A program made the position numbers and the translations under genes. Below, one piece after another: positions 7,122 to 48,902 of a stretch of DNA of 64,000 bases. The DNA lies in the NCBI GenBank assembly GCA_009917695.1, contig JAACJG010000011.1, forward strand, positions 92,997-156,996. The letters are read 5' to 3'. Under the pieces are notes generated by a model, which saw only the letters and a program-made list of their open reading frames with translations, did not search any database and was not told the DNA's origin. The stretch comes from Candidatus Rifleibacterium amylolyticum. Lineage in GTDB: Bacteria > Muiribacteriota > Ozemobacteria > Ozemobacterales > Ozemobacteraceae. The stretch's first letter is position 1. Every line of letters begins with the position of its first letter.

Positions 7122-7269
7122 GCTTTATATCTTTCTTCAATCGCTATCGGTATCGAAATCGGGTTCTTAATCCGGGTCGATTTCGATACCGAACCCGTTT
7201 CCGATAATTGCAGAACGGCAATATACAACCTGCGACAGCAAAAGTAAATTCTCGCGAAGCTTTGCGTGA

Positions 7270-12952: not shown

Positions 12953-13546
12953 TTAATCGTTGGAGATAATTCGGAGCAGCTGTTGGCGGAGTTTGCCAAT
13001 GTTCTTGCTTATGGCCTGTGGAAAGGGCAAAACGAATGCCTGCTCGGCTGTGTCGCTGACGAAGCGGATTACGGCGCCGTTTAGCCCCCTGCCCTGCATG
13101 GCTTCGGCGAAAAAGAAGCTTTCCATATCGACCAGGCTGGCGTTGTATTTTACGGCCAGCTGTGCGCGTTCGTCTCTGGTGCTTGCCGGCTGATCAACGG
13201 TTAAAATTGCTGCCGGCGGCAGGTCTGGCAGAGTCGGCAGCTCAAGCTGGCGGCCGACGTAAAAAAGCTTGTTGCAACAGAACAACTGACCGATCTGCAG
13301 TTCTGGCGCGAGCGCTCCGGCTGCGCCAAATAGGATTATGCGTCGATAGCTGGCCTGTGCCAGTTCGCGGTCTAGCAGCGCAAGCAAAGGAGCGCCGCCG
13401 GCGGCATTGGCAGTCGCCAGTCTGCCGCCTTTAAAAGACCAGCTAGCGGCGTCTGACTGCCGGCAATCTGGCAGGATAGCGGCCAGCAGCCTGGCTTCGG
13501 CTTTGAACGGCGCCAAAATGAGAGTCTGCGGGTCTGTAGGGCTCAT
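12953..13546 (-). CDS. PNP_UDP_1-family nucleosidase (MTA/SAH or 5'-deoxyadenosine nucleosidase / futalosine-hydrolase-like)
   Basis: A 197-aa protein. ..IILFGAAGALAPELQIGQL.., VDMESFF.., and AVIRFVSDTAEQ align with the E. coli MtnN blocks IINTGSAGGLAP, VEMEA, and VVRAISDVADQ. Its start overlaps the upstream gene by 4 nt. Confidence 0.65.
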   Translation of the reverse strand: MSPTDPQTLILAPFKAEARLLAAILPDCRQSDAASWSFKGGRLATANAAGGAPLLALLDRELAQASYRRIILFGAAGALAPELQIGQLFCCNKLFYVGRQLELPTLPDLPPAAILTVDQPASTRDERAQLAVKYNASLVDMESFFFAEAMQGRGLNGAVIRFVSDTAEQAFVLPFPQAISKNIGKLRQQLLRIISND

Positions 13547-14592
13547 TTCTGCAGACTCTGGTCAAGCATTTTTTTGAGGTCAGCGCTGCCGAAATCAGTG
13601 TTTTTGAGGCGTTCCCAGACTTCGGGGGTTTCCATGCACATGTAGACCGGCACGTCGGCAAAATATTTCTGCAGACCGGCGCGCGCAAAATTGTATATCT
13701 GCTCGCGGAAGGGTCTGAAATACCTGATCTTGCCGTCAGTCGAAGGGTAAAATTCTTCGGCGAGAATTCCGGTGTCGGGGTGATACTTTTCGACGTATTC
13801 CTGAAAGCCCTTCGGAAAGCGGAAAGTGCCCAGGGAAATCCAGTTGATCTTAAGTCCGTGCAGATATTCGTGCATGAGTTCGAATACTTCTGTGTAGAGG
13901 ATCTGCCAGTTCTGCAGCGGCAGAAGCGGGTCAAAATGAAACGCCAGCGCGCAGCCTTTTGCACGGGCAGCCGTTGCTGCTGCGTTCAGGCGCTCGCGCA
14001 GCGAGGCCGCGCCATGTTCGAGGCGGTCGATATATTCCTGCGGATTCAGCGAAAAGGCCAGAGTCACATGGCGTGCATCTTTTGCCTGCATTATTGCCGT
14101 TATATCAGCACTTTTGCTCTTAACTTCGAGTGTAAAATCGGGCATTCCGGCGGTCCATCCGATAATTGAGGCGTTGAGCGGAAAAATTCCTTCAAGCGCG
14201 AGCGGGTCGCCGAACTGACCGGTGCCAAGTCTGATTGGCCCGCTGATGCGTTCGCGCAGCTCGAGTATTTCGCGGCGGCAGTCATCCCAGTTCAGAAAAA
14301 GAGTTATGTCGCCGGCGCCGGTGTAGTTCTGAATTATGCAGTATTCGCACTCGAACGGGCAGCCCATCCCCCACTCCACTACCCAGTAACCGCAGCAGAC
14401 GCTGCCTTTCTGACCCGGGCAGGGTTTTACAAACGCCCCGCGATTGAGCGTGAGCAGCAGACCATCACCGGGATGCTGCTCGCCGCTGACTTCATGGCGC
14501 TTGTCAAATTCAATCTGGCTCTCGATCTGTTTCGCCAGCCGCAGATCCTTGACCCGCTCATCAACATAGAGGTTTCTGAAACAAAGAGTCAT
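13543..14592 (-). CDS. spore-photoproduct-lyase-family radical SAM enzyme (SplB-like, COG1533)
   Basis: GMGCPFECEYC aligns to the SPL cluster motif GCMGHCHYC (CX3CX2C), and the 349-aa size fits. The gene lies 2 nt downstream of the ParB-like gene. Confidence 0.7.
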   Translation of the reverse strand: MTLCFRNLYVDERVKDLRLAKQIESQIEFDKRHEVSGEQHPGDGLLLTLNRGAFVKPCPGQKGSVCCGYWVVEWGMGCPFECEYCIIQNYTGAGDITLFLNWDDCRREILELRERISGPIRLGTGQFGDPLALEGIFPLNASIIGWTAGMPDFTLEVKSKSADITAIMQAKDARHVTLAFSLNPQEYIDRLEHGAASLRERLNAAATAARAKGCALAFHFDPLLPLQNWQILYTEVFELMHEYLHGLKINWISLGTFRFPKGFQEYVEKYHPDTGILAEEFYPSTDGKIRYFRPFREQIYNFARAGLQKYFADVPVYMCMETPEVWERLKNTDFGSADLKKMLDQSLQK

Positions 14593-14594
14593 TG

Positions 14595-15425
14595 TTATAA
14601 CTCTTCTACAGCTGCGAAAATTGCATCGACAGCGGCCTGTGCTTCGGTCAGGCGGCCGCTGTGACGGCGGGTCAGATTGCAGGTCAGCTGCATGCCAGGT
14701 TTGGAGAAGGTTTCATCGATCTTTATGCTTATGCCCGGTGGCAGCGGGTTCTGTTCGAGCGCCCGCGCAAATTTGTCGAGCGCATCAGTTCTGCGAGGTT
14801 GCGCCAGACGCTGCAGGTTTTCGAGTGCTTCAGCAGCATTGCTGCCAGGCAGCTTCTCTGGTAGCACGTTCTTTCGCTGGGCCTGGCGCAGAAACATGGC
14901 GATGTTGCGCTTTTCTGAAACCGTACCGGGCATAGACAGCAGATCGCCGGCAAAGCGTTGCATGTCGTCGCCGAGGTGTCCAAGTTCGCGCCAGATGTTG
15001 AGCGGCAACTGCTGCTCAGGCGGGTTGCTCCGGTTTTTTGCATTTTCAGCAATGTATTTAAGAGCCAGCCGCAGTTGCGGCGAATCGGCGCAGCGTGCCA
15101 GCCTAAGGAAATCTGCCTGATCTTCAGAGTGGCAGTCCGAATAGGCGACCGCCAGTTCAGTTGCGCCCAGTTCGCGATGGCCGTTCAACTGTGCAAAGAG
15201 CTGTGCTGGTGATCCGGCAGCTTCAATGCAGGGTGCGCTGCTATGCCCGAGCAGTTTGAAAGCAGCCAGCCGGCGGTGCCCGTCGCAGACCCGGCTCTGG
15301 CTGACAACCAGAGGCTGCATAATGCCATTCTCACTGATGCTGCGAACAAGATTATCATCCGGTGCCGGCGTGATTTCGCCGAGCAGCGGCTTCAGATCGG
15401 TTATCTGCATTTCAATTATTTTCAT
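14595..15425 (-). CDS. ParB N-terminal (ParB/Srx-fold) domain protein
   Basis: The N-terminus ..ITDLKP..NLVRSISENGIMQPLVV..DGHRRLAAFKLLG carries the ParB GxRR box. It is followed by a helical C-terminal region of unknown function. Confidence 0.65.
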   Translation of the reverse strand: MKIIEMQITDLKPLLGEITPAPDDNLVRSISENGIMQPLVVSQSRVCDGHRRLAAFKLLGHSSAPCIEAAGSPAQLFAQLNGHRELGATELAVAYSDCHSEDQADFLRLARCADSPQLRLALKYIAENAKNRSNPPEQQLPLNIWRELGHLGDDMQRFAGDLLSMPGTVSEKRNIAMFLRQAQRKNVLPEKLPGSNAAEALENLQRLAQPRRTDALDKFARALEQNPLPPGISIKIDETFSKPGMQLTCNLTRRHSGRLTEAQAAVDAIFAAVEEL

Positions 15426-15516
15426 GATGCAGCATTGTAACGTATACTGGCATCGCCATCAAGCAGCATCAGAGAATTCATGGTATAACCCGCCCGCCGA
15501 AGGCAGACTATGTATG

Positions 15517-15633
15517 TTTTTGTAATCGCATCGAATCTGATTCGATCATAATCGAATTAGTTGTATGTATTTAAGTTTAATTCTTTTATACTCGAATTAA
15601 ATTTGATATACTTAAGATAATGCGATTACAAAA
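15517..15633. promoter_or_regulatory. AT-rich divergent control region bounded by a perfect 14-bp inverted repeat (ttttgtaatcgcat / atgcgattacaaaa)
   Basis: The arms lie at 15517-15530 and 15620-15633. An internal palindrome cgaatctgattcg and repeated tcgaatta motifs are present. The AT content is far above the flanking DNA, and the region sits between the divergent ParB-operon and ATPase starts. Confidence 0.5.
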
Positions 15634-15654
15634 GAAATAACTCGAGGAATCAGA

Positions 15655-16875
15655 ATGCTCAAAAATCGAACGATCTTCGAACAAAAACTGCTGCATCTGA
15701 TCGATACGCCAGTTATAAAAATAGTGACTGGCGTCAGAAGATGCGGGAAATCTTATCTTTTGAAACTTCTTGCCGGGCATCTGCAAAAACAGGGCGTAGC
15801 TCGCGACAGAATAATCAGCATCGACTTTGAATCTATTGCGAATCGTGAATTAACCGATTACCTGGCACTTTACGATCACATTATGAGACTTGCGGGGAAA
15901 GACAAGAAGCGTGTTTACATAATGATTGACGAGATCCAGGAAGTAAAAGACTGGGAAAAAGCCGCTCGTTCTCTCATGGTCGATCTCGATTGCGATCTTT
16001 ATCTGACCGGCTCGAACGCCCATCTGCTGGCTGGCGAACTGGCAACCCTGCTTGCCGGAAGATATATTGAGCTGTCTCTTCTGCCGCTGTCTTTCAAAGA
16101 GTATCTTGACTTCAATGAAGTTTCTCGAGGCGACAGAGCATCAGTCGAAGAAGCTTTTTACAATTTCATAAAATTTGGGGGATTCCCAGCCATGCACATG
16201 CTTCCTGATGACGAAGAAATCAGGGGGCAATATCTAAAAGGCATTTTTAATTCGGTTGTTCTTAAAGATGTAATACAACGCCACGATATTAGAGATTCAG
16301 AGCTTCTCGAACGTATTTTAATTTATCTGATGGAAAATATCGGCAATATCTTCAGCGCAAAAAAGTTTGCGGATTATCTCAAAAGTCAAGGGCGCAAGGT
16401 TTCTACAGACTCTGTCTATAATTATATCAGAGCTCTCGAAACCGCGCTGGTTATCTATACCGCCCGCCGTTACGATGTCAAAGGTAAAAAAGTTCTTGAA
16501 CGACTCGAAAAATATTATCTTGTCGATCTCGGCTTAAGAAACGCTGTATTGGGTAACAAAACAGCTGATATTTCGCAGGCTCTTGAAAATATTGTTTATC
16601 TTGAGCTGCTAAGGCGTGGCAACAACGTATATGTAGGTAAGGAAGGCGAACTCGAAGTCGATTTCATCGCCTGCAGCGGCAATCAGAGACATTACTATCA
16701 GGTCTCCTATCTGATCGAATCAGAGCAGACCAGGGAACGTGAGTTCCGGCCTTTGCGACTCATCTGCGACAACTTCCCCAAAACCGTTATTTCGCTTGAT
16801 AAATTCAAGTTATCTGATAGCGACGGGATTGAGCACATGAACCTGCTTGATTTTCTGCTGATAGATCAAAACTGA
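15655..16875 (+). CDS. AAA-family ATPase with DUF4143-type C-terminal domain
   Basis: It has a Walker A (GVRRCGKSYLL), a Walker B-like IMIDEIQ, and the typical ~400-aa architecture. Confidence 0.7.
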   Translation: MLKNRTIFEQKLLHLIDTPVIKIVTGVRRCGKSYLLKLLAGHLQKQGVARDRIISIDFESIANRELTDYLALYDHIMRLAGKDKKRVYIMIDEIQEVKDWEKAARSLMVDLDCDLYLTGSNAHLLAGELATLLAGRYIELSLLPLSFKEYLDFNEVSRGDRASVEEAFYNFIKFGGFPAMHMLPDDEEIRGQYLKGIFNSVVLKDVIQRHDIRDSELLERILIYLMENIGNIFSAKKFADYLKSQGRKVSTDSVYNYIRALETALVIYTARRYDVKGKKVLERLEKYYLVDLGLRNAVLGNKTADISQALENIVYLELLRRGNNVYVGKEGELEVDFIACSGNQRHYYQVSYLIESEQTREREFRPLRLICDNFPKTVISLDKFKLSDSDGIEHMNLLDFLLIDQN

Positions 16876-16991
16876 CAAAGCATTCTCTGTATGTACTGGC
16901 ATTTTTGTCGAAATTTCGAACGCGGCCTTTGAATTTTCAAGGAGATTTACCCGGTATCTTTGTGAACTGGCGGTTGTCGCATCTGTCGTTG

Positions 16992-18941
16992 TCAGCGGCG
17001 GCGTTTGAAGAGGTTGCCGAGGTCTTTGAGAAGATCTTTGGCGGGGTCTGATTTTTTGGGCGCGGTATCGGGGCTCGTAGGTTCTTTGCTGCGGGGCTTG
17101 AGAATATCCTGCAGGAGCTTTTGCCCCTGGCGTTTGAGGCCAAGTTCGAGAAGTTTTTCGGGCTTGAAGCCGGGGAAAACCGGCGCCAGCAATGTGCCTT
17201 CGACGCGGCTTGGAATGCTGGCAGTTTTGCCGTCGAGAGATATCTGCTGCAGGACACGGCTTTTCGCTACTGCCGCCGTCGCGAATGTGATGTTGAGGTT
17301 GCCCTTGAGGCTGGTGTCGAGACCGACATCGCCGCGGTAATCTGCCCGGCCGGCGGAACTCAGAAACGCCATATCATTGGTGGTCATCACACCCTGTCTG
17401 ATCACGAAAGTTCCGCTGGCTTCACTTATGTCGCCAGATGCGAATTCTTTGAGGTTGATGAGCGACAGAAAAGGCGTCACAACAGGCGGCGTGTTGTACC
17501 GACCGTTCTGCATACGCAGGCTGCCGGTGCCGTTCCAGGAAGCCAGAGTCTCGATGTCGCCGGTAGCTTTAAAAGTGCCACCGACCGGTCCGGTAATTAC
17601 CTGTTTCTGCGTGGTGTTGCTGTCGAGGAAAGATTCAGCGCGCAGTCCTCTTCCCTTTGCATTTACCTGCAGCTGAACCGGATGTTTGTCAGGAAAAATC
17701 TTGCCGCTGCCGCTGAGAGAACCGCCGAAAAGTTTTGCTTGAGCACTTTTGATTGTAAAGACATTGCCGCTATAGCTGAAACTGGTGCTGACATCGAGAA
17801 ACGGAAACAGATACGAACTGCGATTCGTCGAAGATACCGGCAGATCGAAATCGAATCGCGGGACTGACGCTGATCCTGTCAATGACAGTTTTTTCGGCGT
17901 GCTTTTGGCCTGGAGATTTATCGAGACTTTGTTCATGTCGATTTTGCGACTGGGTATTGCAAGCGCTGCATTGGTAATGCCAATATCAGCCGAAACAGAG
18001 CCGTCAGCCATCTGACCGGTCATCGCCAGTTGCGCTGAAAACTTTTTGATTTCAGGGCTGGCGTTGTAAAAAATCGACTCGATGTTCTTAAGATTGGCTT
18101 TGAATGAAAACTTCGTCGCTGCTGCCAGCGAAAATTTCAGTTCTGAATCAGCTTGTCCGCCGGCAAGGCGCAATCCGTCGATGTGCCCAGGCGCGACTAT
18201 TCCGATGATTGCCGCCAAGGTTTCGACAGACGATGTTTCTATTGTCGCTGTACCTGAAGCCTGCATCGGCTTGAGCGCATGCACTTTAATGTCAGCTTTG
18301 AACGGCAGTTTGCCTGCCAGATCATTTTTTTTTGCATCAGCCACTGCCAAACTGCCCTTGAAATCGATATTCAGCTCGCTGCGTGACTCTGAGCGCGCGG
18401 CGGTGGCTGAAGGGATCTGTAAGAGCACGGCTTTACCGCCCTTCTGTGCGATAATGCGCAACTCAAGCTTGCTGCCTGAGAGCTTATCAAATGGCAAATC
18501 CTCGATCGCCATTTCCAGCGAACCTGAAGCCGGCCGTGAAATGCTGCCCAGCACGGGCTTGCCTTTCGCATCAAGGGTCAGCGCAGCCTTGAGCGATTTT
18601 ACATTAACTTCTTTCATTACCAGATTGCCGCCGAGCAGGCTCATGAAATCGCAGGTGGCAGACAGCTCTTTAATTTGAGCTGAAGGTAGTTCAGGCCGCG
18701 CGGAATCGCCGATGCGGATTCCGGTCAGGGTTACCGTTGTGTAGCTGAGCTTGTAATCCTTCGCCGAAACTGGCACGCCGACGAGTTCAGATATCTTCTG
18801 CTCGAACTGCTCTTTAATACCTGGTGACGGCTGCTCTTCGCCCATCGCAAATTCACAGCAAACAAGCAAAAAGCAGATCAGCATGGTCTTTGCAACAACA
18901 GCTCTACGGGTCGAAAAAGATCTCAATCGATACCTGGTCAT
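16992..18941 (-). CDS. large secreted AsmA-like protein
   Basis: A 649-aa protein with an N-terminal hydrophobic anchor, a long beta-rich repetitive body and a basic C-terminal tail. Confidence 0.4.
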   Translation of the reverse strand: MTRYRLRSFSTRRAVVAKTMLICFLLVCCEFAMGEEQPSPGIKEQFEQKISELVGVPVSAKDYKLSYTTVTLTGIRIGDSARPELPSAQIKELSATCDFMSLLGGNLVMKEVNVKSLKAALTLDAKGKPVLGSISRPASGSLEMAIEDLPFDKLSGSKLELRIIAQKGGKAVLLQIPSATAARSESRSELNIDFKGSLAVADAKKNDLAGKLPFKADIKVHALKPMQASGTATIETSSVETLAAIIGIVAPGHIDGLRLAGGQADSELKFSLAAATKFSFKANLKNIESIFYNASPEIKKFSAQLAMTGQMADGSVSADIGITNAALAIPSRKIDMNKVSINLQAKSTPKKLSLTGSASVPRFDFDLPVSSTNRSSYLFPFLDVSTSFSYSGNVFTIKSAQAKLFGGSLSGSGKIFPDKHPVQLQVNAKGRGLRAESFLDSNTTQKQVITGPVGGTFKATGDIETLASWNGTGSLRMQNGRYNTPPVVTPFLSLINLKEFASGDISEASGTFVIRQGVMTTNDMAFLSSAGRADYRGDVGLDTSLKGNLNITFATAAVAKSRVLQQISLDGKTASIPSRVEGTLLAPVFPGFKPEKLLELGLKRQGQKLLQDILKPRSKEPTSPDTAPKKSDPAKDLLKDLGNLFKRRR

Positions 18942-21912: not shown

Positions 21913-21924
21913 AACTCAGATATA

Positions 21925-21966
21925 AAAAAGCGCTTTGGCAATCTTACAGCCAAAGCGCTTTTTTAT
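21925..21966. terminator. bidirectional rho-independent terminator
   Basis: The stem aaaagcgctttggc...gccaaagcgctttttt is flanked by an A-run on one side and a T-run on the other, between convergent genes. Confidence 0.65.
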
Positions 21967-28405: not shown

Positions 28406-28439
28406 AAAAAAGCCTCCTTCGGGAGGCTTTTTTTTTATT
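28406..28439 (+). terminator. rho-independent terminator
   Basis: aaaaaagcctcc-ttcg-ggaggc is followed by T9. Confidence 0.7.
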
Positions 28440-48385: not shown

Positions 48386-48467
48386 AATTCGTGCTCAGCG
48401 AAGCGGTGCTCGTAATCGTAATCGAAAAACAAAATCGATTACGATTAAGATTACGCGAACGAGCACG
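48386..48467. repeat. imperfect palindrome containing tandem cgtaat units (copy 1 of a direct repeat)
   Basis: The sequence is ttcgtgctcagcgaagcggtgctcgtaatcgtaatcgaaaaacaaaatcgattacgattaagattacgcgaacgagcacgag. Confidence 0.5.
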
Positions 48468-48853: not shown

Positions 48854-48902
48854 TATTCGTGCTCAGCTAAGCGTTAATCGTAATCGTAATCGATTTTTCG
48901 AA
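48854..48902. repeat. copy 2 of the cgtaat-containing direct repeat (putative operator)
   Basis: The sequence ttcgtgctcagctaagcgttaatcgtaatcgtaatcgatttttcgaatc is ~85% identical to the first half of 48386-48467. Confidence 0.5.

Follow-up and report, generated by a model that had tools for sequence, protein, structure and literature searches.

A phased palindrome array as the probable private control region of a mobile PDC-S01 ATPase gene in Candidatus Rifleibacterium amylolyticum

A divergent spacer of 229 nt (positions 15426 to 15654; 35% GC) separates the start of a ParB-like operon from the start of an ATPase gene in a metagenome-assembled genome of Candidatus Rifleibacterium amylolyticum (assembly GCA_009917695.1, contig JAACJG010000011.1), and it carries a perfect 14-bp inverted repeat. 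All positions refer to the window, that is, the whole 64,000-nt stretch of this contig that was analyzed. The question raised by this locus is which of the two genes the repeat and its AT-rich surroundings serve, and what would bind them. The original prediction held that one palindrome-binding regulator, possibly the ParB-like protein, co-ordinates both divergent units from this spacer, or else that the repeat bounds a small mobile insertion. Our analysis points to a different answer, which we hold to be probable: the AT-rich core of the spacer (approximately 15505–15654) would be a private control region of the ATPase gene, in which a sigma-70-type promoter is set in a 40-bp-phased array of TTC-N10-GAA palindromes. 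The ATPase would be the likeliest binder and would regulate its own gene, and the left arm of the repeat would be a recent inverted copy of box 3, the palindrome nearest the start codon. The identity of the binder and the effect of its binding are what we infer from the sequence features, from their conservation with the gene, and from a predicted fold.

The inverted repeat and the boxes at the ATPase promoter

The two arms, TTTTGTAATCGCAT at 15518–15531 and its exact reverse complement ATGCGATTACAAAA at 15620–15633, were recovered by a repeat finder and by direct reading, the left one shifted by a single nucleotide from the 15517–15530 given originally. They enclose 88 nt and lie 102 bp apart from center to center. 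The distance to the adjacent start codon is 21 nt for the end of the right arm (ATPase ATG, 15655) and 92 nt for the start of the left arm (ParB-like ATG, 15425), in agreement with the roughly 20 and 90 nt first estimated. When the spacer was shuffled 1000 times with its dinucleotide content preserved, the longest perfect inverted repeat of each shuffle measured 6–12 nt and none reached 14 nt; the repeat is not a product of chance. No further copy of the exact 14-mer occurred in the window, where other near-matches carry two mismatches and are consistent with chance, and neither the 14-mer nor the arm pair recurred in approximately 100 fetched loci or in viral contigs. The spacer had also been described as much more AT-rich than its surroundings; its AT-rich core is confined to the right-hand part and has 27% GC, and 15507–15656 (26% GC) is the lowest-GC 150-nt stretch of the window, the mean of which is 51%. 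To the left, a GC-rich motif, AACCCGCCCGCCG (15487–15499), which is kept in the window and in the related loci L004 and L006, ends a block conserved on the ParB side, and a variable stretch with the left arm comes next.

The recurrent unit of the core is a 16-bp palindrome, TTC-N10-GAA, with a TATA-like center. Box 1 (TTCGATCATAATCGAA, 15541–15556), the best palindrome, begins 114 nt upstream of the ATPase ATG; L004 has an identical copy, and L006, L007, and L003 have related versions. Box 2 (TTCTTTTATACTCGAA, 15581–15596), likewise TTC-N10-GAA, begins exactly 40 bp after box 1 and 74 nt before the ATG. It is the most conserved site of the ATPase family, and its equivalents in L089, L008, L009, L010, L013, L015, L096, and L097 start 69 to 87 nt upstream of the ATG. 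Box 3 (TGCGATTACAAAAGAA, 15621–15636), a further 40 bp downstream, is degenerate, with one mismatch to TTC-N10-GAA, and spans the predicted transcription start, extending into the 5′ untranslated region. The right arm of the repeat is the left two-thirds of this start-codon-proximal box; its CGATTA core is invariant in five homologues, and in L007, L013, and L015 the equivalents of box 3 begin approximately 29 to 32 nt upstream of the ATG. Within 15300–15800, the only perfect TTC-N10-GAA sites were the two at 15541 and 15581, and six ATAATCGAAT-like half-sites (at most two mismatches) in alternating orientation fell within 15522–15629, versus about one per kb in the rest of the window. The smaller motifs pointed out originally were also found again: the inner palindrome CGAATCTGATTCG (15532–15544) arises where an extra ATCGAAT half-site directly adjoins the left half of box 1, and TCGAATTA occurs twice in the spacer (15552–15559 and 15592–15599), again with a lag of 40.

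The predicted ATPase promoter (15585–15612, plus strand), the best plus-strand match of a promoter scan, has its −35 element TTTATA (15585–15590) inside box 2, followed by a 16-nt spacer and an extended −10 element TGaTATACT (15604–15612), the hexamer of which occupies 15607–15612. The hexamer pair has counterparts in four homologues, with TATCTT in L006, TATTTT in L007, TATATT in L008, and TATAAT in L089. Transcription would start at approximately 15619–15620, the first base of the right arm, and a Shine-Dalgarno sequence, GAGGA (15644–15648, plus strand), lies 6 nt before the ATG. The palindromic sites thereby overlap the predicted promoter of the ATPase gene, box 2 lying over the −35 element and box 3 over the start. 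Of the original description of a divergent control region, the operator-type character, with one arm in operator position at the ATPase promoter, was retained; service to both units was not. As for the left arm, it fits the TTC-N10-GAA core poorly, and the stretch that contains it differs in both nearest relatives, reading CTCTAGTGGCCGTTA in L004 and being replaced by a longer unrelated segment in L006. The reading we favor for the left arm is an inverted duplicate of the left two-thirds of box 3 confined to this lineage, and the 14/14 identity of the arms suggests that the copying was recent.

Box conservation across the ATPase family

The upstream regions of homologues at 72–87% identity aligned in register with the last 75 nt of the spacer, and the features in common were box 2 (TTAATTCTTTTATAnTCGAATTAA), the TAT of the −10 hexamer, the CGATTA core of the right arm, and the start codon. 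Two of these homologues lie demonstrably in other genomic contexts. The L008 ATPase gene adjoins HicAB toxin-antitoxin genes, and the short upstream flank of L007 lacks the ParB-like start sequence; on the L089 contig the ATPase is the only called gene. Boxes were then counted upstream of 33 non-redundant genes whose identity to the window ATPase is 39% or more. TTC-N10-GAA occurred 17 times in this clade, compared with 1.6 times expected. Each of the 11 genes from 46% identity upward had at least one site, most of these sites beginning 69 to 87 nt upstream of the ATG, and wherever a region held a pair, the two sites were exactly 40 bp apart (4 of 4). Plasmids of two cultured species, Peptoclostridium acidaminophilum and Ilyobacter polytropus, carry boxes of the same type and phasing.

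A broader survey covered the 170 nt upstream of approximately 90 homologues at 28–87% identity, 69 of them non-redundant. A strong direct repeat was detected in 36 of these 69 regions, with a lag of 40 bp in 11 and of 73–77 bp in 16, whereas control intergenic regions from the same loci gave such a repeat in 6 of 37, with scattered lags. The boxes fall into two classes: a lag of exactly 40 bp at approximately 37–100% identity to the window ATPase, and one of 73–77 bp at approximately 34–37%, the latter with a consensus sigma-70 promoter between the copies. The repeat units measure 14–50 bp, depend on the subfamily, and are usually palindromic themselves, as exemplified by ATTACGAAAAAGTTCC...GGAAAAAATTCGTAAT, GAAGAAAAAGTGGCAATATTGCCAAAAATTCTTC, and AATAGTTTCTTTTATAAAAGAAACTATT. 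In 25 of 30 regions, at most 33 nt separated the end of the second copy from the start codon, and a sigma-70-like −10 element, part of a predicted promoter, was present between the copies in 17 of 30. In 27 of 30 regions, the two copies of one gene resembled each other (median 96%) more closely than they resembled the upstream region of any other gene (median 70%). Furthermore, where paralogues share a contig, as in L039 and L046, their boxes differ. The likeness of copies within a gene and the difference between paralogues suggest that the recognition factor is gene-specific, and across genomes the sites co-occur and co-vary with the ATPase gene.

By the simple measure used, no clear twin boxes were seen at four plasmid homologues, from Moraxella, Lactobacillus, Methanosphaera, and Acinetobacter, and the box pattern is evidently frequent, not universal. 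In two loci (L091:1871-4218 and L093:1453-4212), two divergent DUF4143 ATPase paralogues stand head to head, and their intergenic region of approximately 290 bp has three 40-bp-phased AGTTCTnTTAtAAAAGAACT copies directly 5′ of a TTGACT-17-TACAAT promoter. The literature on DUF4143, COG1373, and PDC-S01 is sparse and consists of classification or survey work, in which the upstream box array was not found described; the box regularity of the PDC-S01 family is therefore undescribed as far as could be found.

The ATPase, its neighbors, and competing explanations

The ATPase gene (15655–16875, plus strand) encodes a 406-aa protein with AAA_14 and DUF4143 domains, identified with Pfam and PADLOC profiles. 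It matches PDC-S01 over its full length (PDLC04787, E = 3.2e-156, residues 3–402), and PDC-S01 is an experimentally untested PADLOC phage defense candidate (Payne et al., bioRxiv 10.1101/2024.01.29.577857) that a survey reported to be the fourth most common candidate defense system across prokaryotes (PMC12988326). The gene has 43% GC (GC3 0.45), compared with 52–57% (GC3 approximately 0.6) in its neighbors, and its downstream neighbor is a convergent AsmA-like gene. Past a few Riflebacteria-type sequences, its nearest relatives belong to Clostridia, Spirochaetes, and Fusobacteria. Homologues were found in 242 plasmid records (175 from Acinetobacter) and in 18 phage-type records, and several of the plasmid and phage homologues adjoin recombinase, Fic, HNH, or phospholipase D genes. 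The gene was apparently gained by horizontal transfer, as a low-GC cassette that now separates the ParB-like operon from the AsmA-like gene. Within and around it, a 13-nt perfect inverted repeat pairs 15536–15548, in the box 1 region, with 16712–16724 in the 3′ part of the coding sequence, and ATCTGATCGA is present in two exact copies in the gene (15695–15704 and 16709–16718); these copies may be due to chance or may be an internal box.

A structure model of the protein was obtained with AlphaFold2 from a 26-sequence alignment (pLDDT 84, pTM 0.85). It comprises an AAA+ domain, a helical lid, and a three-helix bundle with a beta-hairpin wing, that is, a winged helix at residues 215–289, where sub-threshold Pfam matches to HTH_11, Trans_reg_C, and FUR were also obtained (residues 218–268). 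The C-terminal alpha-beta-beta-beta-alpha-beta unit fits the published assignment of DUF4143 to PD-(D/E)XK (PMC3424549). The best Foldseek matches in the Protein Data Bank (PDB) were archaeal Orc1/Cdc6 proteins bound to origin DNA (2qby_A, 2v1u_A, and 2qby_B; E approximately 1e-6), with TM-scores of only 0.30–0.37. A PDB sequence search with the ATPase gave no match, and neither Pfam nor NCBIfam returned a Cdc6/ORC family for it even at E values up to 10.

Autoregulation by the ATPase is the likeliest mechanism in our view because its predicted fold is Orc1/Cdc6-like with a winged helix and a nuclease-like domain, and the ATPase is the favored binder because box sequences follow the gene from phylum to phylum and are not shared by paralogues within a genome. 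Dimers or higher oligomers of the ATPase would bind its own boxes through the winged-helix domain. With spacings of about one helical turn for half-sites and about four turns for boxes, the sites would lie along roughly one face of the DNA. The bound protein would cover the −35 element at box 2 and the start site at box 3 and so cause autorepression, and the extra inverted copy approximately 100 bp upstream may strengthen repression through cooperative binding or through looping with box 3.

The other gene at the spacer, on the minus strand at 14595–15425, has a weak, sub-threshold Pfam match to ParB_N and is the first of a three-gene operon (12953–15425, minus strand), followed by genes for an SPL-like radical SAM enzyme and a PNP_UDP_1/MTA-nucleosidase-like protein. 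The operon is conserved in all Riflebacteria relatives retrieved (L002–L004). Four related loci were retrieved through the ParB-like protein, and a fifth, L006, through the closest ATPase homologue. The promoter scan placed the promoter of the operon at 15434–15462 (minus strand), with a −35 element TTGATG (15462–15457), a 17-nt spacer, and a −10 element TACAAT (15439–15434), at least 55 nt from the left arm. Both hexamers stand in invariant or near-invariant alignment columns of five Riflebacteria loci that have different right-hand neighbors, and the ParB-like start and the next 50–75 nt are common to all five. The −10 element ends 8 nt before the ATG at 15425 and no Shine-Dalgarno sequence is present; the operon mRNA is therefore probably leaderless.

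Beyond approximately 15500, the five Riflebacteria loci diverge. The slot of the window (15500–16990) holds the PDC-S01 ATPase between the ParB-like operon and the AsmA-like gene, and L006 has an 87% identical ATPase in the same slot. In L002, where the ParB-like protein is 88% identical, the AT-rich array is replaced by an unrelated, extremely AT-rich sequence and a different gene (L002:1-575). The ParB-like promoter is kept there, which argues that it is independent of the array. The L003 slot (L003:5226-6000) contains a low-GC 162-aa open reading frame with no Pfam match, which was considered as an ATPase remnant and rejected for want of significant similarity. L004 follows the window sequence to 15602 and then jumps to the 3′ end of the ATPase gene (window 16828–16859, 91% identical over the last 30-odd bases), and this junction is evidently a deletion remnant of the ATPase gene; in the L004 slot (L004:2534-4755), the remnant is followed by a DUF6036/AbiEii-like nucleotidyltransferase gene and an unknown gene. 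These different contents show the slot to be a hot spot of gene turnover in Riflebacteria. An 18-nt direct repeat (14/18), considered as a possible att-like repeat or target-site duplication, flanks array and gene exactly, at 15500–15517 and, right after the stop codon, at 16877–16894; it was treated as chance because the L006 flank does not support it and such repeats are common in the region.

Several observations weigh against the ATPase as the autoregulating binder of a private array. The window boxes are degenerate and their best direct-repeat score (9) is not above that of shuffles, so that the case rests on the comparison with homologues, of which only about half have strong repeats. 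The box centers resemble TATAAT, that is, −10 hexamers, and part of the box conservation could be due to a host factor or to the promoter as such. The left arm, a misfit to the box core and unique to this lineage, can be given a function as a proposal only. Moreover, boxes 1 and 2 are kept 40 bp apart in L003 and L004 despite loss or replacement of the ATPase (L003:5760-5870 and L004:4590-4650, on the minus strand of these loci). L003 retains the TTC-N10-GAA cores of both boxes, its box 2 having a diverged spacer between intact arms, whereas L004 retains that of box 1 only, its box 2 ending in AAA. Boxes that outlive the ATPase may serve something else or may not yet have decayed.

The strongest of the alternatives, which we regard as unlikely, is that a host regulator or nucleoid protein, such as a silencer of AT-rich foreign DNA, would bind the boxes in place of the ATPase. 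In addition to the survival of the boxes in L003 and L004, it would be consistent with the most AT-rich region of the window standing beside a foreign-looking gene. Against it, the same box type accompanies the gene in Riflebacteria, Clostridia, and Fusobacteria, and a host protein leaves the gene-specific boxes unexplained, since paralogues on the same contig differ and copies within a gene evolve in concert.

The shared bidirectional operator of the original prediction, with one regulator on both arms, appears somewhat less plausible still. The arms do lie between two divergent genes, one of them in operator position for the ATPase, and L003 and L004 retain boxes 1 and 2 beside the ParB-like operon without an ATPase. 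Co-ordinated control of both units is, however, made unlikely by the ParB-like promoter, which is conserved where the array is absent, and by the left arm, which is conserved in neither L004 nor L006. The ParB-like protein itself makes a poor binder, in that its ParB_N match is sub-threshold and no helix-turn-helix (HTH) domain was matched in it with Pfam; the boxes accompany ATPase genes without a ParB-like neighbor into unrelated contexts, in L007 and L008 and on the Peptoclostridium and Ilyobacter plasmids.

An invertible promoter, in which a site-specific recombinase would flip the 88-bp segment and direct transcription toward either the ATPase gene or the ParB-like operon, would account for perfect inverted repeats around a segment with a predicted promoter 5′ of a defense-type gene. 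We consider such phase variation improbable. With arms of 14 bp around a segment of 88 bp, the element would fall near the lower size limit of known invertons. The left arm is absent from the sister lineage L006, the promoter faces the ATPase gene in all homologues, and the repeats of the family are elsewhere direct, not inverted. No alternative orientation was seen in the one assembly that carries the locus; a search for a second assembly returned only the same contig.

A structured nucleic acid acting in cis is very improbable. The 116-nt element was predicted to fold, as RNA or single-stranded DNA, into a three-way junction with a 14-bp outer stem and two box hairpins (−21.5 kcal/mol, z = −5.5). 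Palindromic protein sites yield such folds automatically, though, and the outer stem is conserved in no homologue. The left arm and box 1 lie 5′ of the predicted promoter and would remain untranscribed, and an Rfam scan of 15000–17200 gave no real match (best E = 0.46, 18 bits versus a gathering score of 208). Finally, a miniature inverted-repeat transposable element (MITE) or other small mobile insertion, suggested by perfect 14/14 terminal inverted repeats around an AT-rich, foldable element of approximately 116 bp, is scarcely credible given the lack of any other copy in the window, the fetched loci, or viral contigs, the absence of a target-site duplication (flanks ...TATGT / element / GAAAT...), an interior orthologous to ATPase upstream regions elsewhere, and a right arm that is part of a conserved box. 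Two further candidates were rejected, a replication origin because cumulative GC skew rises steadily through 13–18 kb without inflection, and an integron attC site because no core-site motifs were seen by eye.

Extending the autoregulated ATPase array to the whole family gives a wider proposal, which we regard as possible yet short of probable. PDC-S01 ATPases would be Orc1/Cdc6-like sequence-specific binders whose private promoter boxes, phased at 40 or approximately 75 bp, co-evolve with each paralogue. They would assemble at their own loci and repress themselves at rest, and the AAA+/nuclease protein would be released or activated on infection; the 14-bp pair of the window would be a lineage-specific added looping site. 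The inverted repeat alone is one more operator-like promoter feature, and its value lies in the family pattern to which it led. AAA_14/DUF4143 (PDC-S01) genes are among the most abundant uncharacterized defense candidates of bacteria and archaea. If the protein binds the boxes, the cognate DNA site of every family member would be written beside its gene, and DNA binding, autoregulation, and activation would become directly testable in a family without a known mechanism.

Other repeats were noted elsewhere in the window. A 39-nt direct repeat (90% identical, 468 bp apart) with tandem TAATCG hexamers lies at 48387–48466 and 48855–48897, in an intergenic region 5′ of an aspartokinase/homoserine dehydrogenase gene (48948), and its first copy falls within a long palindrome (48410–48450). 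A link between the boxes and these (TAATCG)n repeats at 48.4–48.9 kb was dropped, as they have only a 6-mer in common. For the pattern GTAATCGTAATCG, 9 near-matches were counted where 0.95 would be expected. Other perfect inverted repeats of at least 12 nt with short loops, at 2536–2581, 7147–7192, 21922–21966, and 28406–28433, may be hairpins such as terminators.

Comparison with known systems

With MITEs and invertons, the element shares short perfect inverted repeats around an AT-rich segment of approximately 90 bp. In contrast to them, it is single copy, has no target-site duplication, has an interior tied to a gene family, and lacks its arm pair in the sister lineage. With PDC-S01, the correspondence is one of protein: the window ATPase matches the profile over its full length, joins an ATPase to PD-(D/E)XK, and belongs to a horizontally mobile family with members on plasmids and on phage-like contigs. 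The definition of PDC-S01 covers the protein only, whereas the feature described here is the box array upstream of it.

The likeness to archaeal Orc1/Cdc6 proteins and their origin recognition boxes (ORB; PDB 2qby and 2v1u) is one of architecture only. The predicted AAA+-lid-winged-helix arrangement is similar, and in both cases repeated dyad-symmetric boxes, some of them inverted, flank a very AT-rich stretch immediately 5′ of the gene. The domains of the ATPase are, however, AAA_14 and DUF4143, with no Cdc6/ORC membership and with an extra C-terminal PD-(D/E)XK-like domain, and the locus is a single-gene island in a bacterial chromosome whose boxes lie over a promoter, with no inflection of GC skew.

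Controller (C) proteins of restriction-modification systems bind paired palindromic C-boxes, which are autoregulatory operators at defense genes. Like C-boxes, the sites of the window family are gene-specific palindromes in two or more copies that overlap or flank their own promoter, and they travel with a mobile defense-type gene and diverge together with it. Unlike C-box systems, the ATPase locus has no separate small regulator gene, the presumed binder being the large AAA+/nuclease protein, and the box phasing in the ATPase family is fixed at 40 or approximately 75 bp. The feature is of a known kind, an operator array at what appears to be an autoregulated, mobile, defense-type gene.

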